Made by a program: the position numbers and the translations under genes. Below, piece by piece: positions 6,550 through 22,887 of a DNA stretch of 27,033 nucleotides (within the stretch, counting starts at the first letter, position 1; every line of letters begins with the position of its first letter). Origin of the DNA: an uncultured Gemmatimonadales bacterium (lineage in GTDB: Bacteria > Gemmatimonadota > Gemmatimonadetes > Gemmatimonadales > Gemmatimonadaceae). Where the stretch lies: assembly GCA_963793305.1 (NCBI GenBank), contig CAWBZV010000021.1:1-27033 (forward strand). Direction: 5' to 3'. Under the pieces are notes generated by a model, which saw nothing but the letters and a program-made list of their open reading frames with translations, was not told the DNA's origin and did not search any database.

Positions 6550-7329
6550 ATGATCGCCGAGGGCGCACCATTCGTCGTCGAGCTCGCGCACTTCAACGGG
6601 CCGCTGGATCTCCTGTTGACGCTCATTCGCGACGAGCAGATCGACATTTACGACATTCCGATCGCGCGCGTGGCCGAGCAATTCCTCGTGCGCCTGCACT
6701 CGCTCGGCCTCGACGAGGCGGCGGACTATCTCGACATGGCCGCTCGGTTGTTGCGCATCAAGGCACAGTTGCTCTTGCCGCATCCGGAAGGGAACGAGGC
6801 GTGGGAGGATCCGCGCGCGGAGCTCGTGCGCCGGCTGCTCGAGTATCAGCAGGTCCGCGAGGTCGTCGACATCCTGGATGCGCGAGGCGAAGCGCGCCGC
6901 AATCAATTCGCGCGTACCGTGCCCGTTCGCCCCGGCGATCCGGTGCCTCAGAACACGGTGTTGTCGGTCTCGATGAGCGAGCTTCTCGCCGCGGTCGATC
7001 GGGTGCTGCGCTCCGCTGTGCGCCCGATCGTGCACACTGTCGTGCCGCGAGCCCTCGACGTGGAAGGCGCGCTGCGCGCCGTGCGCGCGTTGCTTGCCGA
7101 GCGCTCGCGTGCGTCGTGGCGCGATCTCTTGGCCGCGGGGTCGGAGCCATGGCGCGCGTTGTCGTTTCTGTTAGCGCTGCTCGAAATGGCCCGTTTGGGT
7201 GAATGCATCATTCGGCAAGCGGCGCCGTTTGCCGACGTGTGGATCTCGCCGCATGGCGAGATCTGTCCAACCGACCAGTCGAGCAGCGCAAAGCGCTGCA
7301 TCGACGAGCCGCGGAGCGGCTCGGTGTGA
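6550..7329 (+). CDS. scpA: Segregation and condensation protein A
   Basis: FVVELAHFNGPLDLLLTLIR..IDIYDIPI..AADYLDMAARLLRIKAQLLLP..EDPRAELVRRLLEY..FLLALLEMAR; C-terminal tail derives from repeat copy A. Confidence 0.95.
   Translation: MIAEGAPFVVELAHFNGPLDLLLTLIRDEQIDIYDIPIARVAEQFLVRLHSLGLDEAADYLDMAARLLRIKAQLLLPHPEGNEAWEDPRAELVRRLLEYQQVREVVDILDARGEARRNQFARTVPVRPGDPVPQNTVLSVSMSELLAAVDRVLRSAVRPIVHTVVPRALDVEGALRAVRALLAERSRASWRDLLAAGSEPWRALSFLLALLEMARLGECIIRQAAPFADVWISPHGEICPTDQSSSAKRCIDEPRSGSV
7242..7322 (+). repeat. Hairpin repeat copy A, inside the scpA 3' end
   Basis: GATCTCGCC-gcat-GGCGAGATC; TCCAACCGAC (7266-7275); GTCGA-GCAGCGC-aaa-GCGCTGC-a-TCGAC; GAGCCGC-gga-GCGGCTC. Confidence 0.85.
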
Positions 7330-7859
7330 GCCCGCTGGCCAAGCTGCTTGAAGCCGCGCTCTTCGCGAGTGGCACTCCGGTACCGCTCGACGACCTCGCA
7401 GCGCTCGACCCCGAGTCGACGGGCGAGCAGATCACCGCGGCGTTGACCGAGATCGCCGAGCACTACGCGGATCACGGCGTCGAGCTGATCGAGGCGGGCG
7501 GCGGGTGGCAGATCCTGACGCGCGGCGAGTACACGGCGGCCATCGAGCGCGCGCAACTCGCGTCTCGGCCGCAGCGGCTGTCATTGGCGGCGCTGGAGAC
7601 GTTGGCGCTCGTGGCGTATCGACAGCCAGTCGCGCGGGCCGAGATCGAGGAGATTCGTGGCGTCACGGTTGGGAATCTGCTCAAGACCTTGCTCGAGCGC
7701 GGGCTCGTCGACGTGGTCGGCCGGGCCGAGGGACTCGGGCGGCCGTTGCTCTACGGAACCACGCCCGCGTTCCTGGAACAGTTCGCGTTGCGGCACTTGG
7801 GCGAGTTGCCGCGCGCGAACGAGCTGGCCGTCGCGCTCAAGCCGCTCTCTGAGCTATGA
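7326..7859 (+). CDS. scpB: Segregation and condensation protein B
   Basis: GTG start overlapping scpA TGA; LLEAALFASGTP..LIEAGGGWQILT..LSLAALETLALVAYRQPVARAEIEEIRGV..GRPLLYGTTPAFLEQF. Confidence 0.95.
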   Translation: MSPLAKLLEAALFASGTPVPLDDLAALDPESTGEQITAALTEIAEHYADHGVELIEAGGGWQILTRGEYTAAIERAQLASRPQRLSLAALETLALVAYRQPVARAEIEEIRGVTVGNLLKTLLERGLVDVVGRAEGLGRPLLYGTTPAFLEQFALRHLGELPRANELAVALKPLSEL

Positions 7860-8564
7860 TGCGCATCCAGCGCGCGCTCGCCCGCTCCGGCGTGGCATTG
7901 CGGCGGCGGGCGGACGAGCTGGTGGCGGCGGGGCGCGTGCGGGTCAACGGGCAGGTCGCGAAGATCGGGCAGTCGGTCGATCCGGCGACGGATCGCATCA
8001 CCGTCGATGGCGCCGAGGTGACGCCACCAGCCGCGTCGGCCACGTGGATCGTCCTGAATAAGCCGGGCGGTGTGCTCACGGCTCGGAAAGATCGGGACGG
8101 TCGCCGAACAGTCTTCGATCTCGTCCCGGACGTTCCCGGGCTCACGTATGTCGGACGGCTGGATTACATGACAGAGGGCGTGCTGCTGCTCACCACCGAT
8201 GGGGTTGCCGCGCATCGGCTCACGCATCCGAGCGCCGGCGTCGAACGCACCTACGTCGCGACGGTCCGTGGGGACGCCGCTGGCGCGGCGCGGGTCGCGC
8301 GCGCGGGTGTCACCTTGCCCGATGGCGAAATCGTGCGGCCGGTCGACGCGGCGGCGCGCGCGATTGGGCAACGGCGTTGGGAGTTCGAGGTCACGATTAC
8401 CGAAGGCAAGCATCATGAGGTCCGCCGGCTGTGCGAGGCGCTGGGCCTCGACGTTCGAGCGACTGGTGCGTACCCGTTTTGGGCCAGTGCAGCTTGCCAA
8501 TCTGGCTTCGGGCGCGACTCGTGCCCTCACCGCGGCTGAACAGCAGGTGATAGAACATGCCTAA
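7856..8564 (+). CDS. rluB: rRNA pseudouridine synthase, RsuA/RluB family (extra T near 8455)
   Basis: S4 domain MRIQRALARSGVA.RRRADELV..GRVRVNG; LNKPGG; VGRLDYMTEGVLLLTTDG; ITEGKHHEVRR; second frame ERLVRTRFGPV; follows scpAB as usual. Confidence 0.85.
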
Positions 8565-9549
8565 GACCGCAACACCGACGGCTTCGACCGTCGTGCCGTC
8601 GGATACGTCGCTCGCGCAGGCTGTGGCGCGGCAGGTCGCTCGTCGGGTTGTCGGGCAGGACTACATGGTCGAGCGCCTGCTCATCAGTCTGCTGACGGGC
8701 GGGCATGTGTTGCTGGAGGGCGTGCCCGGGCTGGCGAAGACGCTGACCGTCAGGACGTTGGCCGAGACGGTTCGGACAACATTCAGTCGCATTCAGTTCA
8801 CGCCGGATCTGTTGCCGGCTGACGTCATCGGGACGCAGGTCTACGACCAGTCGAATGGGCAGTTCACGGTCAAGCGCGGTCCGATCTTCGCCAACATCGT
8901 GTTGGCGGACGAGATCAATCGCGCGCCGGCGAAGGTGCAGGCGGCGCTGCTCGAAGCCATGCAGGAGAAGCAGGTGACGATCGGCGGTGTGACGCACGTG
9001 CTCGAGGAGCCGTTCCTGGTGCTGGCGACGCAGAATCCGATCGAGCAGGAAGGGACGTATCCGCTGCCCGAGGCTCAGGTCGACCGCTTCATGATGAAGC
9101 TCAAGGTCGGGTATCCGTCGAAGGAGGAGGAGCGGGAGATCCTGCGACGGATGGCGGGTGGGACGGCCATCCCGGTCGAGGCGGTGGCGTCGCCCAGCGC
9201 GATTCTCGAGGCGCGGGCGAAGATTGCCGAATTGTACATGGACGATCGGATCGTCGAGTACATCGTCGAGATCGTGCACACGACGCGGCGGCCGGCTGAT
9301 GCTGGGCTCAAGGAGCTGGGGCCGCTCGTCGAGTACGGGGCAAGTCCGAGAGCCACGATCGCACTGGCGCAGGCTTCTCGGGCTCACGCCTATCTTCGCG
9401 GCCGCACCTTCGTGACGCCCGACGATATCAAGGCCATTGCGCCCGACGTGCTCCGGCATCGGATCCTGACGACGTTCGAGGCCGAGGCCGAGTCGGTGAC
9501 CAGCGATATCATCGTCCAGCGCGTGCTCGCCGCGATCGAGAGCCCATAA
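8557..9549 (+). CDS. moxR: MoxR-family AAA+ ATPase
   Basis: GHVLLEGVPGLAKT, RIQFTPDLLPAD, LADEINRAPAKVQAALLEAMQE, ATQNPIEQEGTYPLPEAQVDRF, GASPRA. Confidence 0.95.
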   Translation: MPKTATPTASTVVPSDTSLAQAVARQVARRVVGQDYMVERLLISLLTGGHVLLEGVPGLAKTLTVRTLAETVRTTFSRIQFTPDLLPADVIGTQVYDQSNGQFTVKRGPIFANIVLADEINRAPAKVQAALLEAMQEKQVTIGGVTHVLEEPFLVLATQNPIEQEGTYPLPEAQVDRFMMKLKVGYPSKEEEREILRRMAGGTAIPVEAVASPSAILEARAKIAELYMDDRIVEYIVEIVHTTRRPADAGLKELGPLVEYGASPRATIALAQASRAHAYLRGRTFVTPDDIKAIAPDVLRHRILTTFEAEAESVTSDIIVQRVLAAIESP

Positions 9550-9561
9550 TGGGTTCTGAAT

Positions 9562-9608
9562 GGCGCTTCGCGCCGGCTCGCTTCGCGTCGCCCTTACTAG
9601 GTTGTTGG
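9562..9608 (-). repeat. Degenerate, inverted hairpin repeat copy E between moxR and DUF58
   Basis: Minus strand CCAACAAC..GGC-ga-CGC-gaa-GCG-a-GCC then GGCGC-gaa-GCGCC; same C-GNA-G loops, only partial match to the 10-mer. Confidence 0.5.
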
Positions 9609-9612
9609 CCAG

Positions 9613-10531
9613 ATGTCATCAACAGTTCCGCCTGAGGTCCTCAAGCAGGTCAAGCTCATCGAGCTGCGCACGCGGGGGCTCGTGAACTCGCTGTTTACGG
9701 GCGAGTACCATTCCGTGTTCAAGGGCCAGGGCATGGAGTTCGCGGAAGTCCGCGAGTACCTGCCGGGCGACGAAGTACGGTCGATCGACTGGAACGTGAC
9801 CGCGCGGATGCGGCGCCCATTCGTGAAGCGCTATGTCGAGGAGCGCGAGCTGACGGTGGTGCTCGCGGTCGACTTGTCGGGCTCGGAGCGCTTCGGCACG
9901 ACGCGGCGCTTCAAGAGCGAGGCCGCGACGGAGCTCGGCGCCGTGCTGGCAATGTCGGCCGTCCGGAACAACGATCGGGTCGGGACGGTTCTATTCACGG
10001 ATCGGGTGGAGCACGTGGTTCCGCCGCGCAAGGGACGGCGCCATGTACTGCGCATCGTCCGCGATCTGCTCGCGTTCCAGCCGGTGGGGCGCGGGACCGA
10101 TCTGGCGGGCGCGATCGAGTACCTGAACCGCCTGTTATCGCACCATGCCATTGTGTTTCTGATCTCGGACTTCCAAGCCGGAGCGGGCGGCATCGAGCGG
10201 CCGTTGAAGCATCTCGCACGACAGCACGATGTGATCGCGGTCACGGTCGAGGACCCGGCCGAGAAGACCCTGCCGAACCTGGGTCCGGTGCGACTCGTCG
10301 ACCCGGAGACCGGTGCGACGATCGTGGTTGACACCAGCAAGGCCGTTGTGCGGGCGCGATACGAGCAGAATGTGCGCCGACGAGCGCCAGGCGCGCCGAC
10401 AGCTGTTGCGGCGGCTGGCGATCGATGAGGTCGCGATTCGCACGGACGCCGGGGTCGTCGAGCCGCTCCTGGGATTCTTTCGCGCTCGCACGATGCGACT
10501 CCATCGGCGACGCAGCGCTGGGCATGCCTGA
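9613..10531 (+). CDS. DUF58 domain protein (MoxR-associated, vWA-like); frameshift near 10374
   Basis: GEYHSVFKGQGMEFAEVREYLPGDEVRSIDWNVTAR..EERELTVVLAVDLSGS..FLISDF; C-terminus continues as DERQARRQLLRRLAIDEVAIRTD..EPLLGFFRAR. Confidence 0.92.
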
Positions 10532-11436
10532 TGTTCGCCGGTCTGGCGGTGCTGGCGCTGCTCGTTCCCGGCGACTCGGTCATGCTGGGCGTTCGCGTCA
10601 CGCCAGACACCGTTACGGTCGGCGCGCCATTTCAGGTCCTTGTCCGCATCCGTGCGCCGCGCGGGTCGCGCATCGAGTTCTCGCTCGGACCTGACTCCAC
10701 CGGCGCTGTTCAGGCGCTGGACACACGCCAGATCAGGGATTCGCCCGACACGACCGGCGCGGAAGCCATGGCGACCTATCGCATGGCCGCGTGGGATGTG
10801 GGGCCGCAGCAAGTGCTCATTCCCGACGCGATGGTGAGGTTCCCGAGTCTGGCGCTGCGACCTGTGCCGATTGCGCCGCTGACGGTGTTTGTCCGGCGCC
10901 TCGTACCCCCCAAGGACAGTGCGAAGCGGGTGCCGAAGCCGGCGCGAGCGATCCTCGTGGCGGTCGAGCCGTGGTGGTGGCGTTGGGCCGTGGCGGTAGG
11001 AGCGCTGCTCATACTCGTGCTTCTCCTTTCTTGGCTCGTATCCCGGTCCAAGCGCCGGACCGGGCCTGGAGCAAACCGGGATCCATACGAGGAAGCCGTG
11101 CGCGAGCTCGATCGCATCGAGCGCCTCGGCCTGATCGATGCCGGCGAGCGTGGGCGGTATGTCGCCCTCGTCACCCAAGTCGTGCGCGACTATCTCGCCG
11201 GCCGGATCGCGACGGCTTCGCTCTCCCTGACGACCATGGAGTTGGTGGAGGCGCTCCGCGCCGATGCGCGCGTGCCGCTCGAGCGCCTGCAGGGCGTGCT
11301 GGAGGAGAGCGATCAGGTCAAGTTCGCGCGGGCCAGAGTGTCGGCCGAACGCGCGGTCGCGGTGGCGAGTGATGCGCGGCAAGTCGTGGAGGAGACCGAT
11401 ACGGCCGTCAAGAAGAGCGAGGAGGCGGCGGCATGA
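10531..11436 (+). CDS. Bat-cluster membrane protein (signal peptide, Ig-like domain, one TM, DUF4381-like C-terminus)
   Basis: VTPDTVTVGAPF; WWWRWAVAVGALL TM; DPYEEAVRELDRI..VRDYL..LTTMEL..SDQVKFAR; position between DUF58 and batA. Confidence 0.75.
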   Translation: MFAGLAVLALLVPGDSVMLGVRVTPDTVTVGAPFQVLVRIRAPRGSRIEFSLGPDSTGAVQALDTRQIRDSPDTTGAEAMATYRMAAWDVGPQQVLIPDAMVRFPSLALRPVPIAPLTVFVRRLVPPKDSAKRVPKPARAILVAVEPWWWRWAVAVGALLILVLLLSWLVSRSKRRTGPGANRDPYEEAVRELDRIERLGLIDAGERGRYVALVTQVVRDYLAGRIATASLSLTTMELVEALRADARVPLERLQGVLEESDQVKFARARVSAERAVAVASDARQVVEETDTAVKKSEEAAA

Positions 11437-12422
11437 CCTTCAACGGCGTCGGGCTGGGGCAGCCGTGGGTCCTGCTCCTCCTGTTGATGCTGCCCCTGTG
11501 GTGGCTCGCGCGTCGTGGCCAGCGGCCGGCGGCCGTCACGTTCTCGCGCGTGGCAATCCTGGCCGCAGGACCGCGGCTGGGGCTTACCCTCAGCCGGTTC
11601 CTGTTTGTCTTGCGCAATCTGGCGCTGGCCGCGTGCATCATCGCGTTGGCCCGGCCGCGGACCGGCGCGCGGGCCGAGATGATCACGAGCGAGGGGATCA
11701 ACATCGTGCTCTGCGTCGATCTCTCGAGCTCGATGCTGGCACTCGACTTCCAGCCCCAGAATCGTCTCGAAGTCGCGAAACAGACAATGAAGCAGTTCGT
11801 GGCGGCTCGCCAATCCGACCGCATCGGCGTCGTCGCGTTCGCGGGCGAGGCGCTCACGCAGGTGCCGTTGACGCTCGACTATCCGGTCGTGCAGGCGGCG
11901 ATAACGAACCTGCAGGCCGGTGAGCTCGACGATGGAACCGCCATCGGGACGGCGATCGCGACTGCCGCCAACCGACTGCGCGTCGCCCCCGGGCGGTCGC
12001 GCGTCATGGTGCTGCTGACCGACGGCGACAACAATCGCGGGTCGATCGATCCGCGAACCGCCGCCCAGGCCGCGGCGGCGTTTCGGATCAAGGTCTATAC
12101 GATTGGCATCGGGACCGACGGCATGGCGCCGGTGCCGGTTGGGCGCGGGCTTTTTGGGCTTCGCTACGAGAATCGGCCCGTGCACATCGACTACGACCTC
12201 TTGAGTGACATCGCGAAGATCACGAACGGGAGGTTCTTCCGTGCGCGGGACGCGGATGCGTTGGGGCGCATCTATCAGCAGATCGATCAGCTGGAGCGCG
12301 TGCCGGTGCGGACGCAATCGTTCGTGCACTACCGTGAATTGTTCAGGTGGCCCCTGGCGGTCGGCCTGCTCGCGCTGCTGTTCGAGCTCGGTCTACTCGC
12401 TTGGCGAGGGCCGTTGCCGTGA
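11433..12422 (+). CDS. batA: BatA-type vWA domain membrane protein
   Basis: N-terminal PWVLLLL..IIALARP; MIDAS DLSSS; DRIGVVAFAGEA.TQVPLTLD; DGTAIG.AI; LLTDGDNNRG.IDP; KVYTIGIG. Confidence 0.9.
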   Translation: MTFNGVGLGQPWVLLLLLMLPLWWLARRGQRPAAVTFSRVAILAAGPRLGLTLSRFLFVLRNLALAACIIALARPRTGARAEMITSEGINIVLCVDLSSSMLALDFQPQNRLEVAKQTMKQFVAARQSDRIGVVAFAGEALTQVPLTLDYPVVQAAITNLQAGELDDGTAIGTAIATAANRLRVAPGRSRVMVLLTDGDNNRGSIDPRTAAQAAAAFRIKVYTIGIGTDGMAPVPVGRGLFGLRYENRPVHIDYDLLSDIAKITNGRFFRARDADALGRIYQQIDQLERVPVRTQSFVHYRELFRWPLAVGLLALLFELGLLAWRGPLP

Positions 12423-14059
12423 TGGCGCTATTTGAGCAACCCATTCTGCTAGCGGTTGCCATTCTCGGGCCGCTCATCGTCGTGGCGCTGGTTGTTTCCC
12501 GGCAACAGCGACGACGCGCGAGACTGGCCAAGCTCGGCACACCGGCGATCGTCAACCGCCTGGTGCCCACGGCGTCCAGAGAGTCAGGCGTCCTCAGGGT
12601 GATCCTGCTCGGCGGAGCGGCCCTCTGCGCGGGAGTGGCGCTCGCCGGCCCGCGGTGGGGAAACGAGCAGCGGCTGGAGCACGGATCCGGGGTCGATGTC
12701 GTGCTGGCCCTCGACGCATCGCTCTCGATGATGGCCCGGGACGAGCGCCCGAATCGCCTCGAGCGTATGAAGGAAGAGGTCCGGCGCCTGCGGGATCTCT
12801 CGCCGGGCGACCGGACGGCGCTCATCGCGTTCGCCGGTCGGAGTTACGTCCTGACACCGCTCACTGTCGATGATGGGGCATTGGATCTGTTTCTGGAGAA
12901 CCTCGACCCGTCGGTCGTCGGGCAGCCCGGCACGGCGCTGGCACGGGCGATCCGGCAGGGCACCGAGCTTCTGTTGGCGACCAGGACGGCGAGCGATCGC
13001 GCGCTCGTCCTCATGAGTGACGGGGAAGGCTTCGACGACGAGTCGGACGTGAGGGCGGCGGCGGAGTATGCGAAGGAGAATGCGGTGAGCGTCGTGACGG
13101 TGGGATTTGGCACGGAAGCAGGCGCGACGATCCCCGTTACGGGAGGGGCGCCAGGCGACACCGTCAAGCGCGATGAGAATGGGGACATCGTCGTGACCCA
13201 TTACACGCCCAAGATGCTGGAAGCCATCGCCGACGCCGGGCACGGGGTGTTCATCTCGGCGACCGAGACGGATAAGGCGGTCAAGATTCGGAACGCGTTG
13301 AACAAGTTGCGGACGCAGGAGCGCGCGCTGGAGCGCGGGCAGTCGCTCGCGCCGCAGTTTCAGCTTTTTCTGGCGCCCGCCCTCTTGCTGCTGTTGTTGG
13401 ACACTTTCTTGGCTGATAGAACGCGCGTGCGGGTTCGAAAGGTGCGAAAGGCTGGCGCGGTCGCCGCGACGGCTGTTGCGCTGGGGTTCGTCCAAGGGCC
13501 TACCGATAGCGTGCCGCCTCCCCAGGCTTTCAAGCAGCTGGTCGACAAGGGCGATCACACGTCTCGGACCATGTACAACTATGGGACCTCGCTGCTGGCG
13601 AGCGACTCCATGGATGCGGCCGTGTCCGCGCTATCGCTCGTGGCGAGCGATCGGGATCCCGAGGTGCGATATCGGTCGCTGTTCAATTTGGGTCTGGCGC
13701 ACCTCAAACGGGGATTGGCCGAGTCGGGTGATAACGCGCGATCCGAGCTGGACATGGCACTGGCGGCCTACAAGCGCGTGCTGCTCATGCGCTCGTCGGA
13801 CGACGATGCCAAGTGGAACTACGAGCTCGCGCTCCAGGCGAAGCAGTCCGGTGGTGGCGGCTCGTCGCAGCAGCCCAAGAACAACCCGCAGCAGAACAAT
13901 CGTCAGCAACAACGCCAGGGCGATCAGCCCGAAGGGCAGCTCGGGAAGCGGCAGGCCGAGGAGATCTTGAAGAGCGCGGCGCGCGAGGAGCGCGACGTCG
14001 AAGGGAAGCGGCAGAAAGAAGCGGCGACCGACGTGCCGCCCATCGGGAAGGATTGGTGA
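12422..14059 (+). CDS. BatB-BatC-like fusion: vWA + TPR + Gln-rich tail
   Basis: ALAGPRWG; MIDAS DASLS; PNRLER; LMSDGE; TPR-like YNYGTSLL, FNLGLAHL, DDAKWNYELA; Q/N-rich linker; ends in KDW as BatC proteins do. TGATG overlaps at both ends. Confidence 0.85.
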   Translation: MALFEQPILLAVAILGPLIVVALVVSRQQRRRARLAKLGTPAIVNRLVPTASRESGVLRVILLGGAALCAGVALAGPRWGNEQRLEHGSGVDVVLALDASLSMMARDERPNRLERMKEEVRRLRDLSPGDRTALIAFAGRSYVLTPLTVDDGALDLFLENLDPSVVGQPGTALARAIRQGTELLLATRTASDRALVLMSDGEGFDDESDVRAAAEYAKENAVSVVTVGFGTEAGATIPVTGGAPGDTVKRDENGDIVVTHYTPKMLEAIADAGHGVFISATETDKAVKIRNALNKLRTQERALERGQSLAPQFQLFLAPALLLLLLDTFLADRTRVRVRKVRKAGAVAATAVALGFVQGPTDSVPPPQAFKQLVDKGDHTSRTMYNYGTSLLASDSMDAAVSALSLVASDRDPEVRYRSLFNLGLAHLKRGLAESGDNARSELDMALAAYKRVLLMRSSDDDAKWNYELALQAKQSGGGGSSQQPKNNPQQNNRQQQRQGDQPEGQLGKRQAEEILKSAAREERDVEGKRQKEAATDVPPIGKDW

Positions 14060-16083
14060 TGCTGGCCCTCCTGCTGCAGTTGGCCATCGTGGCGCGCGCG
14101 CCGATCGACACGGCGCAGCCCGTGAATTTCCACGCGATGGTGACGCCGGACACGGTGTTCGTCGGGCAGCAGGTGACCTACGAAGTCGGCGTATTCCTCG
14201 ACGATCAGCTGCGACTGCGGCTCCGCCGCAATCCCGAGTTCGTGCCACCCGAGCCGCGGGCCATGCTGGCGTACGACCTGCCGTCGACCGCGACCGCGCC
14301 TGGCGCGCGACGTGTGGGCGATCACGAGTACGAGGTGCACGTGTTCGAGCGGGCGTTCTTCCCGCTCGAAGCGGGGCGATATGAGATCCCCGCGGCCGAG
14401 CTGTCGTACTCGCTGCCGCTGTCGATGAGCTTTTTCAGTCGCGAGGAGAGTCATACGCTCGCGGCCGAGAGTCTGGCGATCGTGGCGCTGGCGCCGCCGG
14501 TCGCGGGGCGGCCGGCGAATTACGCCGGCGCGGTCGGCGAGTTGCACGTCGACGAGCGGTTGGATGCGCATCGGGTGCGCGCCGGCGATCCCGTGCTGCT
14601 CACGGTCCTGGTTGGCGGGCGCGGGAATGTCAAACTGCTGCCGCGGCCCGCCCTGGCGGTACCGTGGGGGTCGGCGGTCGCGGCCGAAGAGCGCGTGCGC
14701 GTCGATACGACGACCGCCGATGTGCATGGGACCAAAGAGTTCGACTGGGTCGTGACGCCGCGCGATACCGGGGTCCTCGCGCTCCCCCCGGTTGGCTACC
14801 CGTACTTCAACCCGTATACCGAGCGATACGAGATCGCGGTGACGCGCTCCGACACGTTACGGGTCGGGGCGGGGACGCTCGCGTCACTCGATACCACGCG
14901 GATGGATGCCAGTCCGCCGCTGGCGATCCGCACCATGTACCGCGGCAATCTTCCGCCGCCGCTCTACTCGCGGCCCGAGTTTTTCGCGGTCGCGGCCTGC
15001 GCGCCGATCCCGGCGATTGCGCTGGGGGCTGCGCGTCGCGCACGGCGTCGCCGGCGTCGCGTGCTCTCGGCCGCGGACCGGCTCAAGATCCTGTCGCGCT
15101 CTCGCCGGCCGATCCCACCGCCTGCGCTGCGTCGGGCCTACGTTGCCGCGTTGGCGGAGCGCTTCGCGCTCTCGCCCGCTACCCTCACGCAGCGCGGCGC
15201 GCTCGCGCACGTGTTGCGAAGGGAAGGGTGCACCGGGCCATCGGGGATGCGGGTCGAGAAATTGCTCGACTCCCTCGATAAGACCGCGTATGGGCCTGGG
15301 CCCGATCTGCCCAAGGACATTGCGCGGCAAGCGTATGCGGCATTCGAGAGCGTCTGCCGGGAGGCGCGGCAGCGTATCGTGCCGCTGCTCTTGCTCTGCG
15401 TTGTTTTCGGAGCGACGGCCCGGGCGCTGGGCGTTGGCGAGGCCGAGGCCAGCGAGCAGTTCCGGCAGGGGCTCACGGCCTACGCGCGCCATCAGTATGG
15501 ACCCGCCGCGGTGCGGTTCGCGGCTGCGGGCCATCTCGCGCCGCGCGCCGCTGACGCGTGGGCGAATGCGGGGACGGCCGCATGGGTGGTAGGCGATACG
15601 GCCGACGCGGTCGTGGGGTGGCAGCGTGCCGCGCGGCTCGAGGCGTTTGCGCACGATGTCCATGAGCGGCTCGGGCTCGTGCGAGCATCGCAAGAAGGGA
15701 CGATCGCCGCGCCACCGCGGGTCGACGCCGGAGTCGTGGCGTCGATTGCGCTCGGGTGTTGGGTCTTGCTCTGTCTCCTACTCGCACTCTGGCCCGGGCG
15801 CGTGAAAGCGCTCACCGCGCTGCTCGGCATTGTGGCGGTCGTCGGCGCGGCCGGCGCTGTGTGGCTCGACGAGCTGGCCAGTGGCGCCAAGCTGGTGGTG
15901 ATCGCCTCGGGGTCCGGCCTTTCGTCCTCGCCCGCTTTGGGCGCCGAGCGCGTCGCCGCGCTCGATGCCGGCGATGTGGCTCGCATCGAGGAGCGCTCGG
16001 GCGCGTGGGTGCGAGTCCGGCTCGATGGCGACCGCGATGGCTGGGTCGAGATCGGCCAGACCACTCCGATCGGAGCGTACTAG
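14059..16083 (+). CDS. BatD-like protein fused to BatE-like TPR and SH3 domains
   Basis: Signal peptide; PDTVFVGQQVTY; YAGAVG; YPYFNPYTERY; TPR-like DAWANAGTAAW; C-terminal GAWVRVRLDGDRDGWV (SH3-like). Confidence 0.8.
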   Translation: MLALLLQLAIVARAPIDTAQPVNFHAMVTPDTVFVGQQVTYEVGVFLDDQLRLRLRRNPEFVPPEPRAMLAYDLPSTATAPGARRVGDHEYEVHVFERAFFPLEAGRYEIPAAELSYSLPLSMSFFSREESHTLAAESLAIVALAPPVAGRPANYAGAVGELHVDERLDAHRVRAGDPVLLTVLVGGRGNVKLLPRPALAVPWGSAVAAEERVRVDTTTADVHGTKEFDWVVTPRDTGVLALPPVGYPYFNPYTERYEIAVTRSDTLRVGAGTLASLDTTRMDASPPLAIRTMYRGNLPPPLYSRPEFFAVAACAPIPAIALGAARRARRRRRRVLSAADRLKILSRSRRPIPPPALRRAYVAALAERFALSPATLTQRGALAHVLRREGCTGPSGMRVEKLLDSLDKTAYGPGPDLPKDIARQAYAAFESVCREARQRIVPLLLLCVVFGATARALGVGEAEASEQFRQGLTAYARHQYGPAAVRFAAAGHLAPRAADAWANAGTAAWVVGDTADAVVGWQRAARLEAFAHDVHERLGLVRASQEGTIAAPPRVDAGVVASIALGCWVLLCLLLALWPGRVKALTALLGIVAVVGAAGAVWLDELASGAKLVVIASGSGLSSSPALGAERVAALDAGDVARIEERSGAWVRVRLDGDRDGWVEIGQTTPIGAY

Positions 16084-16091
16084 GTTACGGC

Positions 16092-17795
16092 GTGCCCACG
16101 ATTGCCATACTGCCCAGCGCGCTGGCTGATCAGATAGCCGCGGGCGAAGTGGTGGAGCGGCCGGCGTCGGCCGTCAAAGAGCTCGTGGAAAATGCCATCG
16201 ACGCTGGCGCGAGATCGGTCGAGATCGAAGTCGACGACGGCGGCCGCGCGGGCATACGCGTCAGCGATGATGGGTGCGGCATGGCGCGAGAGGACGCGCT
16301 GCTGGCGCTGGAGCGGCATGCGACCTCGAAGATCCGGTCGGCTGACGATCTCGTGGGCATTGCGACGTTCGGATTTCGTGGTGAGGCGCTGCCCTCCATC
16401 GCGTCCGTTTCGGCCCTGACACTGGAGACAGCGCCGGGCGACGGGGCCGGGACGGTCGTACGTGTGGTCGGTGGGTCAGTGCTCGAAGTGGCGGACGGTG
16501 CGAGAAGGCGAGGGACGACCGTGTCGGTCGCGCGGCTTTTTCACAACGTGCCGGCGCGGCTCAAGTTCTTGCGGAGCGCGCGGTCGGAGTGGCGAGCCGT
16601 GACCGACGCCGTGACGTCGTTGGCGCTCGCTCAGCGTGGGCTGCATTTGACGCTCACGCACGACGGCGTCCGCGCTATGACGCTGCCTGGGGCAACGTCG
16701 CTGCGAGCGCGCGTCGGCGCAATCTGGGGTGGGACGTATGCGGATGCGCTCGTCGAGGTCGACGATGTCGCTGGCACTGTCTATGTGAGCGGGCTTGCCG
16801 AGCGGCCGAGTGATGTCGGGACTCGCTCGCGGCGCGTGGTGCTAGTTATTAACGGGCGCGCGGTGCGCGACGCGGGGTTGGTTCGGGCGGCCGAAGCCGC
16901 GTATCGGTCAACCATCCCCGCCGGGCTCCGGCCGTCGGTCTTTCTCGACATCACCGTCAGTGCCGAGTCGGTCGACGTCAATGTGCATCCGGCGAAGGCC
17001 GAGGTTCGGTTTCGGGACCGGTGGGTAGTGGAGCGAGCGGTTGAGAACGCGGTGCGTCGTGCCCTTGGGACTTTGGCGAGCTCCCACGTTGTCGGGACCT
17101 GGGTTTCGAACGGCGTGGCTTCTCCTCCGCCGGATGAGCGCGTGCTGCTTCGCAGCAACGCTCACTCGCTCGGACCGCTGGCGGAACCGGCGATCGAGAG
17201 TGCGTCATCGGCCGAGGCTGGGGCCGACGTCGAGATCGTGCCGCCGTTGGTACAGCTGCGGCGCACGTATCTCATGTACGAGCACGACGAGGGCGTTGTG
17301 TTGATCGACCAACACTCGGCGCACGAGCGAGTGTTGTTCGAGCAGTTCATGACCGAAAAACGAACGGCGGGGCAAAGGCTGCTGTTCCCGTTGACGTTGC
17401 ACATGGGCCCGGCCGAGGGGGATGCGTTCGAGGAGCACCGCGAGCTGTTCGAGACGCTGGGGTTCGAGATCGAAGGGTTTGGTGGCCATTCGCTGCTCGT
17501 GCGAAGTGTGCCGATGCCGCATGCGCGGTTCGACGCCGAGCGGTGTTTGCGGGAGACGCTCGACGCATTGACGGGAGATCGGGTCGCCGGAACCGCGACG
17601 CGGCACGAGCGGCTGGTTTCGACCGTGGCCTGTAAGGCCGCGGTCAAAGCCGGCGACAATCTCTCGGCGGCCGAGATGCGGGCGCTGTATCTGGCGTTGG
17701 GCCGGACGACGTTGCCGGCGCATGATGTGCATGGGAGGTCGACCATCGTCCGGCTGTCGTGGGATGAGCTCGAGCGACGGTTTGGACGGCGCTAG
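16092..17795 (+). CDS. mutL: DNA mismatch repair endonuclease MutL
   Basis: GTG start; DQIAAGEVVERPASAVKELVENAIDAGA, ERHATSKI, TFGFRGEALPSIASVS, VDVNVHPAKAEVRF, DQHSAHER, clamp-binding QRLLFP, ACKAAVKAG. Confidence 0.97.
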   Translation: MPTIAILPSALADQIAAGEVVERPASAVKELVENAIDAGARSVEIEVDDGGRAGIRVSDDGCGMAREDALLALERHATSKIRSADDLVGIATFGFRGEALPSIASVSALTLETAPGDGAGTVVRVVGGSVLEVADGARRRGTTVSVARLFHNVPARLKFLRSARSEWRAVTDAVTSLALAQRGLHLTLTHDGVRAMTLPGATSLRARVGAIWGGTYADALVEVDDVAGTVYVSGLAERPSDVGTRSRRVVLVINGRAVRDAGLVRAAEAAYRSTIPAGLRPSVFLDITVSAESVDVNVHPAKAEVRFRDRWVVERAVENAVRRALGTLASSHVVGTWVSNGVASPPPDERVLLRSNAHSLGPLAEPAIESASSAEAGADVEIVPPLVQLRRTYLMYEHDEGVVLIDQHSAHERVLFEQFMTEKRTAGQRLLFPLTLHMGPAEGDAFEEHRELFETLGFEIEGFGGHSLLVRSVPMPHARFDAERCLRETLDALTGDRVAGTATRHERLVSTVACKAAVKAGDNLSAAEMRALYLALGRTTLPAHDVHGRSTIVRLSWDELERRFGRR

Positions 17796-17873
17796 GCGCG
17801 GCGAAGCCGTGCCGTTTCCAACCGACTATCGATGAGTGCGAAGCGCTCCATCGAGCGAGCGGCGCAGCCGCTC
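17795..17873 (+). repeat. Hairpin repeat copy C, mutL-miaA junction, contains the miaA ATG
   Basis: GGCGCGGC-gaa-GCCGTGCC; TCCAACCGAC (17817-17826); TCGATG-AGTGC-gaa-GCGCT-c-CATCGA; GAGCGGC-gca-GCCGCTC. Confidence 0.85.
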
Positions 17874-18562
17874 ATTGTCGTGTGCGGGCCGACGGCGGCC
17901 GGGAAGTCGGCGCTGGCCATGCGGCTGGCCGAGGTCCTGCCGATCACGATCGTGAGCGCGGACTCGCGGCAGATCTATCGGCGATTCGAACGTCGGCACG
18001 GCGAAGCCGACGTGTCAAGAAAGGGATAAGGTTCCGCACGCGGGGTTGGATCTCGTTGACCCTACCCACCGATTCTCATCGTTTGCGTGGGCGAACGCGG
18101 CCATTGAGGCGATTGCGCGAGCGCGGGCCGAGGGCCGGGTGCCGGTCGTGGTGGGCGGCGCGGGATTCTATGTTCGCGCACTCGTGACACCCGAGCCGGG
18201 AATGATGCGATATGACGCCCGCTATCTTGTGGTGGATCCCGGGCCGGTGTTGCGCGAGTGGATCGGCCATCGGATCGAACGTCATGTTGGCCGGAGGATG
18301 GCGGGAGGAAGTGGTGCGACTCGAGCGCGACGTACCGGACAGCGCGCCCGCGTGGCAGGCGAGCGGGTACGGGGCGGTCCGTGAGATGGTGCGGGGCAAC
18401 CTGTCCGAACACGAGGCGCGGGAGGCCGTCGTGATTGCGACGCGGCAGTACGCCAAACGACAGCGGACCTGGTTTCGGCACCAGCTGCCGGCCGACCAGA
18501 CCACACGCATCGACCCTCGCTCGCCGGAGGCGTTGGCGCGACTCGAGGAGCTGGTGCGATGA
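17832..18562 (+). CDS. miaA: tRNA dimethylallyltransferase, short form (~242 aa after removing extra bases near 17990 and 18279)
   Basis: CGPTAAGKS, IVSADSRQIY, F(D)VGTAKP, VPHAGLDLVDP, VVGGAGFYVRAL, TRQYAKRQRTWFR; downstream of mutL. Confidence 0.92.
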
Positions 18563-18621
18563 GCGAGGCGCAGCCGAGCGTTGTCCAACCGACTGGTCAC
18601 GGCGAGCGGAGCGAGCCGTGA
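18562..18621 (+). repeat. Hairpin repeat copy D, miaA-bshA junction
   Basis: GC-ga-GGC-gca-GCC-ga-GC; TCCAACCGAC (18584-18593); TCACGGC-ga-GC-gga-GC-ga-GCCGTGA. Confidence 0.8.
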
Positions 18622-19727
18622 ACATTGGCATCACGTGCTACCCGACGTATGGCGGCTCCGGTGCGGTCGCGACCGAGCTCGGGATCGCGCTCGCGGCCCG
18701 CGGGCATGAGGTGCACTTCATCACGTATCAGCAGCCGTTTCGGCTGCCCATGTTCCAGCCGCGGATCTATTTTCACGAAGTGGACGTTGGGCGGTATCCG
18801 TTGTTCGAGTATCCGCCGTATGATCTCGCGCTCGCCGTGCGGATGCACGAGGTCGTGCTCCGCAACAAGCTCGACCTGCTGCACTGTCATTACGCCATCC
18901 CGCACGCGACGAGCGCATGGATCGCGAGGGAGATGCTGCGTGAGACTGGCGACGACATCAAGCTCGTGACGACGCTGCACGGGACGGACATTACGATCGT
19001 CGGGCAAGATCCGTCCTTTCATGCGATCACAAAATTCTCGATCGAGCGGTCGGACCGGTTAACCGCCGTATCGGATTATCTGCGCGAGGCGACGTATTCG
19101 GCGTTCGGGTGCAGCGGTTGTCGCGTCGATGTGATCTACAACTTCGTCGATCCGAAGGTCTTCGATCGGTCGCGGTACCAGCCGCTCATGAGCAATGGGC
19201 GAAAAGTGCTCATGCACATCTCCAACTTCCGCGCCGTCAAACGGGTGAGAGACGTCGTGCGCATCTATGCGAAGGTGCGCAAGGCGGTACCGAGCGTGTT
19301 GGTCATGGTCGGCGACGGGCCCGATCGCGTCGAGGCACAGGATGAGGCGCGACTCCTGGGAGTCGAGGATGATGTGCAGTTCCTCGGGAAGCTGGAGTCC
19401 GTCGCGCCACTGCTCGCCGGCGCGGATGTGTACTTGTTGCCGAGTCAGAGCGAGTCGTTCGGGCTCTCGGCCTTGGAGGCGCTGGCGTCCGGGGTACCGG
19501 TCGTCGCGTCACGCGTGGGCGGGTTGCCCGAGGTCGTCCGCGATGGTGAGACCGGGTGGCTGTTCCCCATCGGGGACGTTGATGCCATGGCGGATGCGGC
19601 CATCGCGCTCCTGCGCGACCCGGAGCGATGGCGCGTGGTCAGTGCCGCCGCCGCGGCGGATGCGCGGGCGCGTTTTGCGACCGACGACATCGTGAGTCAG
19701 TACGAGGCGCTCTATCGCGATTTCTAG
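18618..19727 (+). CDS. bshA: N-acetyl-alpha-D-glucosaminyl L-malate synthase (bacillithiol biosynthesis, GT4)
   Basis: NIGITCYPTYGGSGAVATELG, YPLFEYPPY.LALA, HYAIPHA, TTLHGTDIT.VG, HISNFRAVKRV, ESFGLSALEA. Confidence 0.95.
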   Translation: MNIGITCYPTYGGSGAVATELGIALAARGHEVHFITYQQPFRLPMFQPRIYFHEVDVGRYPLFEYPPYDLALAVRMHEVVLRNKLDLLHCHYAIPHATSAWIAREMLRETGDDIKLVTTLHGTDITIVGQDPSFHAITKFSIERSDRLTAVSDYLREATYSAFGCSGCRVDVIYNFVDPKVFDRSRYQPLMSNGRKVLMHISNFRAVKRVRDVVRIYAKVRKAVPSVLVMVGDGPDRVEAQDEARLLGVEDDVQFLGKLESVAPLLAGADVYLLPSQSESFGLSALEALASGVPVVASRVGGLPEVVRDGETGWLFPIGDVDAMADAAIALLRDPERWRVVSAAAAADARARFATDDIVSQYEALYRDF

Positions 19728-19728
19728 C

Positions 19729-20484
19729 GTTGCACGCCTCGTTCGCCTGCAGAACGGATTGCTCGCCGCTGCCGGCGTCTTCGTTGGCGCCCGCGGAGCT
19801 GGGGTCACCTGGTCGCCCGCGGTGCTCGCCGCCGCCGCGGCTGCGATTTGGTTGAGTGCGGTCGCCAACGCGTTCAACGACTATGATGATCGGGCCATCG
19901 ACGCGGTTATTCACCCGGGCCGGCCGCTCCCATCCGGTGCACTGACTTCGGCTGCGGCTCTACGCATTGTCGTGATCGCCGGGGTGGGTGGGGTTCTGTC
20001 GAGTGTATTGGCCCGGCCCATTCTTGGCGTGGTCAGCCTCGGCGTCATCGGCGTCATGCTGGCCTATGGGCGAATCAAGGCGCGATCGGGCCTCGCGGCC
20101 AATGCGACCGTGGCGGTGCTCGCTTCGATGCCGTTTCTCTATGGCGCGTGGGCCGCGGGCGAGCCGCGCGCGGGCCTCGTGCTGGTGGGCATTGCGGCGC
20201 CGCTGCATTTCGCGCGCGAGATCGCCAAGGACGTTGATGACATCGACGGCGATCGGGGGCGCCGCCGGACGCTGCCCATCACGGCGGGCGTCGGTGTGGC
20301 CCGTGTGATCGAAGTCGCGGCGACGTTCGTGTTCATCGTCGCGTGGGTCGTGTTTCTGGACGCGCGATGGATCGCGTGGCCCGCGGTGGTGCTGGCCATG
20401 GCGGCGGCGTATTGGGGGATGCCGGCGATCTATAAAGGGGCGATGGCTGTGGCGATGATCGCCTACTATGTTTCGCGGCCATGA
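19729..20484 (+). CDS. UbiA-superfamily prenyltransferase, DGGGP-synthase-like; start codon unresolved
   Basis: RLVRLQN N-terminus; NAFNDYDDRAIDAVIHPGRPLPSG; FAREIAKDVDDIDGD..RTLP; multiple TM segments. Confidence 0.85.
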   Translation, partial: VARLVRLQNGLLAAAGVFVGARGAGVTWSPAVLAAAAAAIWLSAVANAFNDYDDRAIDAVIHPGRPLPSGALTSAAALRIVVIAGVGGVLSSVLARPILGVVSLGVIGVMLAYGRIKARSGLAANATVAVLASMPFLYGAWAAGEPRAGLVLVGIAAPLHFAREIAKDVDDIDGDRGRRRTLPITAGVGVARVIEVAATFVFIVAWVVFLDARWIAWPAVVLAMAAAYWGMPAIYKGAMAVAMIAYYVSRP

Positions 20485-21290
20485 CGGTCGTCCAAGCGTT
20501 CGTCCTCGGCATCATCCAAGGGCTGACTGAGTTTCTTCCGATCTCGAGCTCGGCGCATCTCACCCTGGCGCCGTGGATCTTCCGGTGGACCGACCCGGGA
20601 CTCGAGTTCGATGTCGCGCTGCATATGGGGACGCTGATCGCGGTCCTGTGGTATTTCCGGGCCGAGTGGGTGCGGCTGGCGCAAGCCGCATGGGGGATTG
20701 TCCGGCATGGCGGGCGTGTGCAGAGCCCGGAGGAGATGCGGGTCGTGCTCCTGATCATCGCGACGATCCCCGGCGCGATCGCGGGTCTGCTGCTCGAGAA
20801 ACGGGCGGAGGATACGTTCCGGTCGCCGCTCCTGATCGCCGGCACGCTGTCGGTCATGGGCGTGCTGCTCTGGGCCGTCGACAAGTGGGCGCCGGCGGAT
20901 CGGTCAATGGAGCGGCTCGGCGTCATGGACGCCGTCTGGATCGGGCTGGCGCAGATCCTGGCGCTCGTTCCCGGCGTATCACGATCTGGGTCGACGATCA
21001 CGGCGGGCCGCGCGCTCAAGCTCGATCGCGAGAGCGCGGCCGTGTTCAGCTTTCTTATCAGCATGCCGATTATCGCGGGCGCGGGCTTGCACAAGTTGCC
21101 GCATTTGTTGAAGGCGGGCATTACGGCGCCGATCGCCACCGGGGTCATTGCGGCCGCGGTGAGCAGCTGGTTCGCGATCGCGATCGTGCTGCGCTATGTG
21201 AAGACGCATAGCTATGGCGTGTTCGCGCTGTATCGGGTGCTGCTCGCGGCCGCCGTCGTCGCACTCTGGTTCTCCCGCGCAGGTGCCTGA
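20481..21290 (+). CDS. uppP: Undecaprenyl-diphosphate phosphatase
   Basis: LGIIQGLTEFLPISSSAHL, FDVALHMGT, IATIP, ALVPGVSRSGSTI. Confidence 0.96.
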   Translation: MTVVQAFVLGIIQGLTEFLPISSSAHLTLAPWIFRWTDPGLEFDVALHMGTLIAVLWYFRAEWVRLAQAAWGIVRHGGRVQSPEEMRVVLLIIATIPGAIAGLLLEKRAEDTFRSPLLIAGTLSVMGVLLWAVDKWAPADRSMERLGVMDAVWIGLAQILALVPGVSRSGSTITAGRALKLDRESAAVFSFLISMPIIAGAGLHKLPHLLKAGITAPIATGVIAAAVSSWFAIAIVLRYVKTHSYGVFALYRVLLAAAVVALWFSRAGA

Positions 21291-22032
21291 GGGCTCCGAG
21301 TACGATGGGCTGCAGGCGGCCGAGCTGAAGGCCAGGCTCGGGCTACCACGTGTCAATGTCTACGACAGTATCGCTTCAACAATGGACGCGGCGCACGCGG
21401 CCGCGGAGGCCGGAGCGCCGGCCGGGACGCTGATCATCGCCGATCGGCAAACGGCCGGCCGTGGGCGCGCTGGACGGCGCTGGGCCTCCTCCGCCGGCGT
21501 GGGGCTGTACCTGACACTCATCGAGCGGCCGACGGATCCGAAGGCGCTCGACGTGCTGTCGCTGCGGCTCGGCATTCGACTGGCGCCCGTGCTCGATGGC
21601 TTCGCCGACGGCCAACGCGTCGAGATCAAGTGGCCGAACGATCTCTATATCGGCACGGGAAAGTTGGCGGGCATTCTCTCCGAGGCCCGTTGGCAGGACG
21701 AGCGGCCTTCGTGGGTCGCGATCGGGCTCGGCGTCAATGTCATCGCGCCGCCCGAGGTCCCTGGCGCCGTTGGTCTCCGGGGGGGCGTCCATCGCGCGGA
21801 GTTACTCGCGGCGGTCGTGCCGGCGCTGCGTGCGGCCGCGAGGCAGAAGGGTGCGCTGGCTGAGGCCGAGCTCGAGGAGTATGCGATGCGCGACATGGCG
21901 CGAGGGCATACGTGTCGCGAGCCGGCCGTCGGGACTGTGGCTGGCATCTCGTCCTCGGGCGAGCTGCTGGTGCGGTGCGGCGAGGCCATCGGGGCGTACC
22001 GTTCGGGGTCGCTCGTTATGGTTAGTCTGTGA
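21283..22032 (+). CDS. birA: Biotin-[acetyl-CoA-carboxylase] ligase without N-terminal HTH
   Basis: GTG start overlapping uppP stop; SIASTMD, QTAGRGRAGRRW, IKWPNDLY, KLAGILSE, IGLGVNV. Confidence 0.93.
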   Translation: MPEGSEYDGLQAAELKARLGLPRVNVYDSIASTMDAAHAAAEAGAPAGTLIIADRQTAGRGRAGRRWASSAGVGLYLTLIERPTDPKALDVLSLRLGIRLAPVLDGFADGQRVEIKWPNDLYIGTGKLAGILSEARWQDERPSWVAIGLGVNVIAPPEVPGAVGLRGGVHRAELLAAVVPALRAAARQKGALAEAELEEYAMRDMARGHTCREPAVGTVAGISSSGELLVRCGEAIGAYRSGSLVMVSL

Positions 22033-22808
22033 TCTTCGTTTTCGACGTTGGGAATACCGAGACCACGGTTGGGCTTTGGGCAGGCGCTGAGCTTCGGGCC
22101 CATTGGCGGCTGACCACGAATCCCGACCGGACGCCGGACGAGTTGGCACTGCTCATCCAGCAGCTGCTCGGGGTGGGGAAAGTGCATCCGACGGAGATCC
22201 TCGGCACCGCGATCGGGTCGGTGGTGCCGGCCATCACCCGACCGTTGGCCGAGGCGTGTCGGGTGTCGTTTGGGCGGCCGGCCATAATCGTAGACGCGAC
22301 GTCGAAGCTGCCGATCACGCTGGCCGTTGACGAGCCGTTGACGGTCGGTGCCGATCGGTTGATCAATACGCTGGCCGCCAGCCGGCTGTATCACCGAGAC
22401 ACGATCGTCGTGGACCTCGGGACGGCGACCACGTTCGATTGCATTACTGCTGACGGGACCTTTCTCGGCGGAGCCATTGCGCCCGGAGTCCGGACCTCGT
22501 CCGACAACCTCGTACGGCGGACCGCCAAGCTGCCGGCGACGGAGTTGGTTGCGCCATCCAGGGTGATTGGGAAACGCACCGAGGAGTGCATCCGGGCGGG
22601 GGTGGTGTTTGGGGCTGTCGATTCGATCGACGGGATAGTGCGGCGGATCAAGAAAGAGTGGCCGACCAAGGAGGTCCCATTTGTGGTCGCCACCGGCGGG
22701 TTGGCGGAGGTTTTGAAGCCTTATGTCGAGAGCTTCGACCTCGTGGCCCCATATCTGACGCTGGAAGGACTGCGAATAGCCTATGATCTGCTGTCGGCCG
22801 TCGGCTGA
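22029..22808 (+). CDS. coaX: Type III pantothenate kinase
   Basis: DVGNTET, SVVP, VGADR, VVDLGTATTFD, GGAIAPG, VATGG, LTLEGL; birA-coaX pairing. Confidence 0.96.
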   Translation: MIFVFDVGNTETTVGLWAGAELRAHWRLTTNPDRTPDELALLIQQLLGVGKVHPTEILGTAIGSVVPAITRPLAEACRVSFGRPAIIVDATSKLPITLAVDEPLTVGADRLINTLAASRLYHRDTIVVDLGTATTFDCITADGTFLGGAIAPGVRTSSDNLVRRTAKLPATELVAPSRVIGKRTEECIRAGVVFGAVDSIDGIVRRIKKEWPTKEVPFVVATGGLAEVLKPYVESFDLVAPYLTLEGLRIAYDLLSAVG

Positions 22809-22811
22809 GTG

Positions 22812-22887
22812 GGCGATCGGCTCAGCCGAATCGCCATCCAACCGACCAGTCGAGCAGCGTAGCTGCATCGACGAGCGGCGGAGCCGC
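22812..22887 (+). repeat. Hairpin repeat copy B, between coaX and the groES promoter
   Basis: GGCGAT-CGGC-tca-GCCG-a-ATCGCC; TCCAACCGAC (22837-22846); GTCGA-GCAGC-gta-GCTGC-a-TCGAC; GCGGC-gga-GCCGC. Nearly identical to copy A over ~50 nt. Confidence 0.88.

Follow-up and report, generated by a model that had tools for sequence, protein, structure and literature searches.

The 27,033-nucleotide stretch of DNA analyzed here (the window) is contig C21 (CAWBZV010000021.1) of genome G000, the 5.72-Mb, 92% complete genome of an uncultured Gemmatimonadales bacterium. It holds four copies (A to D) of a dispersed repeat, one strand of which is predicted to fold as a series of DNA mini-hairpins flanking an unpaired core, AAC[CA]GAC. 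We have very little doubt that this repeat is a real mobile element. It is non-autonomous and confined to one genus of the Gemmatimonadaceae. Its copies evidently come and go at orthologous sites, and in some cases the end of the adjoining gene was evidently replaced as well.

Mobility of the repeat

Six genomes of the genus (G000 to G005), 67-95% complete, were compared. BLAST alignments of the window with the five congeners broke at every copy, and all four sites were empty in congeners. The repeat is therefore mobile, as the preliminary description of this DNA had proposed. The wider comparison of filled and empty alleles covered about 0.7 Mb of G001, G004, G005 and G003, in regions picked around their copies, and yielded 37 pairs at 35 sites. 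The net gain was 55-164 bases, and 0-3 target bases were lost in 23 of the 37 pairs; sites were empty in species 91-95% identical. The 3' junction coincides with the base of the final hairpin, and the 5' side is variable. None of the 37 pairs had inverted ends or a target duplication of fixed length, and a miniature inverted-repeat transposable element of the DDE type was rejected on these grounds. Short-read contigs of run X1, a possible source sample of the window genome, spanned copies B and D, the latter without differences, and a contig of run X2 spanned copy C, so that an assembly artefact is unlikely.

Architecture and fold

The element consists of a 5' module (hairpin A or a G-rich alternative, A'), the core AAC[CA]GAC, hairpin 2 and a hairpin 3 with a GGA loop. 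Type A is about 75-80 bases long and runs from hairpin 1 through the core to hairpin 2, which has a bulged A, and hairpin 3. Type A' has the G-rich 5' hairpin instead, with a variable loop able to hold insertions; no compensatory change supporting a pseudoknot between this loop and the core was found by eye. The second 5' module had been missing from the preliminary description, as had the in-frame intragenic copies and the duplication of the upstream flank with gene-end replacement.

A family profile built from 31 seeds gave 108 matches at E<0.01 in G000. The genome catalogue came to 125 entries, of which 114 were strong or A'-only and 33 were of type A', which sets the genome-wide count of the repeat at about 114 copies. 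The exact 10-mer TCCAACCGAC occurred 73 times in the genome, compared with the 12.8-17.7 expected under Markov models (by arithmetic from this expectation, less than 0.1 per window). It had been taken to be invariant, but the full 10-mer was found in 39 of the 99 strong copies genome-wide; the shorter core was kept in 89 of them. The loop of hairpin 3 was GGA in 65 of 66 matched copies, and the tandem G.A motif occurred in 13 copies. Among 228 triloops on the element strand, 163 were of the form C-GNA-G and two of the complementary form C-TNC-G, in support of the strand-specific, DNA-type hairpin fold suggested earlier. GNA mini-hairpins are very stable in DNA and much weaker in RNA, and they resist exonucleases (PMC13037366).

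In an alignment of 27 type A copies, 93.2% of the cells were paired and 13 of the 28 pairs changed on both sides. This covariation was reached by none of 500 shuffles, and slid controls were at most 46.5% paired; its significance is overstated, because the copies are related and the structure was drawn from their consensus. The compensatory C:G to G:C swap noted in the preliminary description proved real in hairpin 3 (14 GC versus 12 CG rows). Compensatory changes in such repeats can partly stem from the target site, and not from selection alone. The view that the element acts in single-stranded DNA rests on these sequence signatures and is put forward as a candidate reading.

The copies in the window

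The window contained exactly four matches to TCCAACCGAC, all on the + strand (at 7266, 17817, 18584 and 22837) and each between hairpins, as first reported. With one mismatch allowed there were five matches, a number that 12 of 100 shuffles also reached, so at this tolerance the motif alone is not significant in the window. DNA folding was stronger than in shuffles for three of the copies (z -6.2, -3.3 and -4.3). Copy C (18560) folded no better than shuffles (z -0.6); its fold depends on tandem G.A pairs, which had mistakenly been placed in copy D and are unrewarded by the folding model. The loops were mostly GNA, as had been said, with the exceptions of the first loop of copy D (C-TCA-G) and the GCAT and AAA loops of copy A. 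The location of every copy at a gene boundary did not hold for copy A.

Copy A, of type A, occupies 7242-7322 on the + strand (hairpin 1 at 7242-7263, core at 7266-7275, hairpin 2 at 7278-7305 and GGA hairpin 3 at 7306-7322). It represents an insertion of 76 bases into the scpA 3' end, within the last 28 codons, and comparison of ScpA termini indicated that it swaps the C-terminus for an element-coded one. The copy was missing in all five congeners, and the empty allele was also present in run X5. The stretch from 4252 to 8103 is present again at 95% in contig C6, where catalogue entry C6:1475 is a second assembly copy of copy A.

Copy B lies at 17795-17873 on the + strand, between the mutL stop codon (17793-17795) and miaA, with hairpins at 17795-17813, 17829-17854 and 17857-17873. 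Hairpin 2 contains an ATG (17832) in the miaA reading frame, which is probably the start codon of this gene. The junction was 74 bases longer than in G004 and G005 and 59-65 bases longer than in the other three congeners; in G001 it held a short hairpin-3-like rest. Copy B recurred at the same junction in locus L204, where 79 of 83 bases were identical and the neighboring genes were 76-85% identical. Closer species were without it, and flank identity did not rise toward the copy. Its presence in L204 would reflect either a lateral transfer or an old copy that was retained there and repeatedly lost elsewhere.

Copy C lies at 18560-18623 on the + strand between miaA and bshA; this variant has two hairpins and includes tandem G.A pairs. 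The first six bases of bshA themselves serve as the 3' arm of the last stem of the copy. In G001 and G004, 59 bases of the copy were missing and the miaA stop overlapped the bshA start, an overlap that the copy splits.

Copy D, of type A, lies at 22813-22887 on the + strand (hairpins at 22813-22834, 22849-22872 and 22875-22887), and its site is a 118-base insert compared with G001 and G004. It came with a replacement 3' end of coaX (22770-22808, + strand, peptide LRIAYDLLSAVG). The displaced former end (22888-22920, + strand, peptide LRLAFELIAG) begins directly after hairpin 3, and is the coding coaX end in G001, G004 and loci L202, L203, L204 and L206. The new end resembles the coaX peptide of G005, G003 and G002, and it differs from the displaced one at 10 of 24 bases, seven of them at third codon positions. 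By its position the displaced end may double as the groES promoter; a consensus scan found no promoter. An inverted repeat at 22931-22957, upstream of groES, which from its consensus we take to be of the CIRCE type, was kept in the relatives fetched.

The stretch from 9550 to 9612 (- strand), between moxR and a DUF58 gene, had been listed as a degenerate inverted copy starting at 9562. The covariance model gave no match there at E<=1, and the stretch was rejected as a fifth copy: about 48 bases match one arm of an inverted-repeat element that is whole at the same junction in G001. It belongs, as a truncated arm, to a different small family whose members have terminal inverted repeats and GAA mini-hairpins. 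Four more arms of this family (one whole element and two single arms) are present in G000, at C5:928364-928511, C5:781102 and C5:1020928, and the family also occurs in L043. The moxR-DUF58 junction was in differing states across the six genomes. In G003 it holds a piece of the main family, composed of hairpin 1 and the core, and the strain of run X1, nearly identical nearby, has the short G004-type junction instead of 9550-9612.

The genes of the window include scpAB, rluB, moxR, bat genes, mutL, miaA, bshA, ubiA, uppP, birA, coaX and groESL. Frameshifts were seen at 8454, 10369, 17989 and 18278 and in groEL (23312-24950). The first four are assembly errors, as they are single-base differences from short-read contigs, and this comparison identified several such errors in the window. 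A PIN-domain gene follows groEL at 24999-25595 (- strand), probably as part of a toxin-antitoxin pair, and adjoins a PhzF-family gene.

Upstream duplications and replaced gene ends

Of 49 A' copies, 17 (at 10 sites, one of them doubtful) had a duplicate of the upstream flank that began 0-4 bases after hairpin 3, compared with a null rate of 3.1%. The duplicates measured 23-98 bases, and 1-75 unrelated bases separated the upstream one from the element. The upstream duplicate was the diverged, coding one. At one site the restart point differed between genomes, and tandem copies with flank arise. Copy D shows a footprint like that of A', with the new coaX end before the element and the old end after it.

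The last 90 bases of fpg were identical to G004 at 66 of 90 positions (59 of 60 just before them) and to the distant G005 at 73 of 90; G001 and G004 also differed from each other at this end. At one G001 site the two duplicates encode an identical peptide, and it is the downstream duplicate that resembles the empty G005 allele. The end of a tRNA gene was duplicated in a similar way at locus L161. The divergence was asymmetric. Over the 60 bases upstream, identity to the empty allele was 0.898 for type A (n=20, p=3e-4) and 0.824 for A' (n=9, p=3e-5), compared with 0.948 at 59 control junctions. The corresponding downstream values were 0.907 (p=0.04), 0.928 (p=0.30) and 0.933.

Two sources of local divergence were rejected. 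AT-biased hypermutation beside the copies was not borne out, since GC content at third codon positions showed no drop across 37 gene ends (p=0.87); single sites do show AT-shifted silent changes. A diversity-generating retroelement was dismissed because the mismatches were not adenine-specific (A 9/71, C 19/96, G 16/114 and T 13/74 at nine sites) and because the reverse transcriptase domain RVT_1 was found only in G003.

One reading of these observations, which we hold to be rather doubtful, is that the repeat would be a cis-acting device for rewriting gene ends, homing between strains or species at the same junction by means of a short stretch of the upstream gene that it carries as an anchor. 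It would repeatedly replace the last 10-30 codons of that gene, and the process would involve no transposase or reverse transcriptase from a known family and no known competence channel, a further part of the reading that we grade as equally doubtful. If true, mobility and local diversification would both be achieved in a new way, perhaps one common to other GNA-hairpin repeats that lack an enzyme.

Placement and distribution

Of 73 type A copies that were informative, 58 pointed in the direction of transcription (p=4e-7), although both strands were equally open to translation. A' copies showed no strand bias (11 of 21). Within same-strand predicted open reading frames of at least 120 aa there were 27 copies, for example in genes for MeaB, alcohol dehydrogenase and ribosomal protein L17. 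An in-frame gain of 72 bases relative to the empty allele of G001 was also seen. Many copies abut stop or start codons. Core proteins, including ScpA, MiaA, CoaX, L17 and MeaB, are altered at their ends or inside. The neighbors of A' copies, judged from N-termini, look like housekeeping genes and tRNAs; A'-only variants lie in or beside tRNA genes (Glu/Asp cluster, tRNA-Sec) at C2:526512 and C11:60774 of G000 and at L161.

The sense bias of type A and the many copies abutting stop or start codons would suit an element acting at the RNA level, in mRNA stability, processing or translational coupling, that selection keeps at operon junctions or that spread via an RNA intermediate. The near-identity of copy B across species, within flanks only about 80% alike, would suit it too. 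Nevertheless, the loops are of DNA type, A' is not biased toward the sense strand, and close species have empty sites. Reverse transcriptase, seen only in G003, was missing from the four copy-rich genomes, and no Rfam family corresponds to the repeat, with zero matches at the gathering score in the window. An RNA-level element is therefore very improbable in our judgment.

A 16-base core pattern matched 71, 29, 11, 7, 1 and 0 times in the six genomes of the genus; the copy-poor ones were G003, with one copy, and G002, with none. In 55 other relatives there was one match, by chance. The covariance model matched 7 of 151 genomes of the family, namely three of the genus, G023 and three chance-like ones. 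The weak model matches in G127, G152 and G129 and a pattern match in G029 were rejected, because the structure was missing. A combined hairpin-plus-core pattern occurred 22 times in the window genome and no more than twice in any one of 400 other Gemmatimonadota genomes. Among the matches listed in named genomes, the A' pattern gave the full element only in Gemmatimonadaceae records and in one 5.7-kb contig titled Bacillota, which is probably misbinned; one Gemmatimonadales record among them joined the 5' module to a different downstream part. A viral origin was rejected, as the exact matches among viral contigs (18 plus 2) lacked the structure by eye, and so was a plasmid origin, as no plasmid record covered 80% of type A or A'. 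Exact 10-mers outside copies were near background, and a reading as DNA uptake sequences was discarded.

Some related structures were seen along the way. G023, from another genus of the family, has a different tandem array of multi-hairpin units with GNA triloops (L054:1180-1700 and L055:1330-1600). An Acidobacteriota record contains three occurrences of a related G-rich hairpin, each behind a stop codon (L128, L184 and L195). In G000, mini-hairpin clusters outside the catalogue lie at C5:616840-616993, C5:624480-624632, C2:876761 and C5:291260, one of them present twice.

Search for an enzyme

The window contains no cognate enzyme, in agreement with the preliminary description. That description had pointed to HUH enzymes as partners, but neither Y1_Tnp (PF01797) nor the repetitive extragenic palindromic (REP) tyrosine transposase (NF047646) was found in any of the six genomes of the genus, with positive controls for both. 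Rep_OBD and RecT were likewise absent from all six. Y2_Tnp and Rep_1 gave no match in five genomes, where the controls were silent as well, and our own pattern found no HUH-like motif in small proteins. No integron integrase scored over the TIGR02249 cut-off in the six genomes, and no control reached this cut-off either. DUF559 was not found in the one genome searched. IS110 was present in three of the six genomes, G001 and G004 not among them. The competence channel ComEC was not found in any of five genomes (G000, G001, G002, G004 and G005), despite signs of allele exchange between species. Ku was present in all six genomes, including the copy-free G002.

A GIY-YIG gene beside an A' copy, one of two matches in G000, was set aside as UvrC-like; it follows fpg. 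In G001, two near-identical islands at C90:113227 and C9:115573 (L284 and L285) each carry a small GIY-YIG gene beside a radC-like gene.

How the repeat may move

We favor, at slightly better than even confidence, an enzyme-assisted, one-ended transfer of single-stranded DNA in which the 3' end is fixed and the 5' flank varies. This preference is based on the C-GNA-G loops on one strand, the covariation, the filled and empty pairs, and the fixed 3' end with flank capture, together with the asymmetric upstream divergence, the sense bias of type A and the presence of Ku in all six genomes. The folded strand would be exposed in a replication fork or a transcription bubble. It would be cut just 3' of hairpin 3, or that end would be protected, and the end would be joined to the target. 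Host repair would resolve the 5' side, together with the 0-100 bases of flank that it brings along. At a new site, microhomology or end joining would give type A inserts with 0-3 target bases lost. Where the target is the corresponding locus of a sister chromosome or related strain, homology would give flank duplication, tandem arrays and a replaced gene end. Selection would then favor insertions after which reading frames, start codons and stop codons still work. The cutting enzyme would most likely be a distant HUH-type or other single-strand transferase acting in trans, either unrecognized by the profiles used or since gone.

Several points weigh against such a transfer. There is no recognized enzyme candidate for moving the repeat, the gene calls come from our own predictor, and the six genomes are incomplete. 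The unrelated spacers before A' copies matched no other A' site, so that capture from other genome sites was not seen. Upstream duplication was found in 1 of 75 type A copies, itself a truncated A', and the pattern used missed copy D. The outgroup-state test on the origin of the diverged upstream copy gave mixed results, and A' has no strand bias.

Host processes might instead suffice. Hairpins would stall forks or resist exonucleases, and template switching, Ku/LigD end joining and homologous exchange would copy the cassette; these processes would also fit its outer stems to the flank and give rise to the duplications. The negative outcome of every enzyme search, the presence of Ku throughout the genus and the exonuclease resistance of mini-hairpins (PMC13037366) speak for this. 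Allele exchange is also common: the ubiA-like gene at 19759-20484 was 76-78% identical to the sister species, compared with 86-95% for its neighbors, and likely underwent such an exchange, and run X1 carries the empty allele of G004 at the 9550-9612 junction. The inner arm is complementary to the target in some copies (copy C, C14:50016, C3:1417824 and C3:1492738). Overall, however, target pairing was weak (p=0.087 over all sites, 0.043 for type A, 0.027 for non-canonical copies and 0.38 on the 5' side, all uncorrected; 0.30 and 0.08 in a cruder test). Moreover, the conservation of the unpaired core and the nearly fixed GGA loop suggest recognition by a protein, and G002 has Ku but no copies. 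A purely host-driven origin is thus unlikely in our view, though worth keeping in mind.

The dozens of filled and empty pairs and the asymmetric footprint make the mechanism testable. The footprint points to an unrecognized single-strand transfer activity or host pathway.

Comparison with known systems

Repeats of this family were not found described in the literature searched, which left out most subscription papers. Uncharacterized 90- and 150-bp repeats have been reported in Gemmatirosa (PMC11237797) and could in principle belong to the present family, although our phylum scan shows no expansion of it elsewhere.

REP sequences, bacterial interspersed mosaic elements and REPINs, together with the REP-associated tyrosine transposase (RAYT), offer the nearest parallel, being short, palindromic, lineage-specific and non-autonomous repeats with single-strand hairpins. 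They form tandem arrays that include flanking DNA and differ in presence between relatives (PMC6006769, PMC2817692, PMC3116915); tandem repeats with flank are known for REPINs (PMC3116915). The present repeat differs in its three unlike hairpins, which are arranged in direct order on either side of an unpaired core, and in the diverged duplication of the upstream gene end. It might be a classical REP/REPIN family that has lost its RAYT, or one whose RAYT the assemblies fail to include. It too is palindromic and genus-specific, lies mostly between co-directional genes with some intragenic copies, and forms tandem arrays with flank (PMC3733652, PMC3116915), and CGTC REPs are also without a known transposase (PMC3733652). 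Furthermore, GTAG occurs in 22 of 33 A' loops. However, type A has neither a GTAG nor a CGTC tag at its stem foot: GT[AG]G was absent from the 5' foot of its hairpins, and in A' it is variable and lies inside a 13-base loop. The catalogue holds singlets and direct tandem pairs and no inverted doublet as a unit, and no RAYT gene flanked by repeats was found in the six genomes, 67-95% complete. We consider a classical REP/REPIN family improbable.

CGTC REPs and Rickettsia palindromic elements (RPEs) are alike in having no known transposase, in supplying stop codons and in placing in-frame copies, coding for 20-30 residues, in housekeeping and repair genes (PMC3733652); there are 27 in-gene copies here. 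In contrast to them, the present repeat has GNA mini-hairpin loops and two exchangeable 5' modules, and inspection of the type A alignment did not reveal the unpaired CGTC tag, 8-9 bp stem and CCA tail of the description in PMC3733652. A preprint on picocyanobacteria linked TnpA-REP to diversified gene ends, and its claim of causation was withdrawn (10.1101/2020.03.09.984088).

Mini-hairpins of the GC-GNA-GC type are read by proteins in single-stranded DNA at single-strand initiation signals and in the N4 promoter hairpin, and the GGA loop of hairpin 3 is an N4-type loop (PMC13037366). Unlike these, the present repeat appears to be dispersed and mobile rather than an origin or promoter.

The right-end transfer of IS200/IS605 elements and IS91/Helitron transposition share one defined end, single-strand hairpins, the lack of a fixed-length target duplication and the carrying along of flank (for IS608, PMC6006769). 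A derivative of IS200/IS605 was rejected, as there is no Y1 transposase and no fixed target tetra- or pentanucleotide; the one preference seen was for a T after the ends of A' copies (25 of 49, at sites that are not independent). Integron attC sites have paired core and inverse-core motifs and act with IntI. The inverse-core pattern was found in 24 of 74 type A copies and none of 49 A' copies, with no conserved partner and no IntI over the cut-off, and the repeat was not classed as an attC site.

In homology-facilitated illegitimate recombination during transformation, one homologous anchor is combined with one illegitimate joint. In integrative elements that restore the 3' end of a gene, the target gene retains a functional end, its former one having been displaced. 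The present repeat would likewise combine such an anchor with such a joint, and it too displaces the old gene end, including that of the tRNA at L161, but its joint is tied to the end of the repeat, ComEC was found in none of five genomes, and the unit has no integrase.

How REP-like repeats spread without a RAYT is an open question (PMC3733652). The repeat described here is an enzyme-orphan element of a REP/REPIN/RPE-like kind, and its gene-end footprint sets the case apart.

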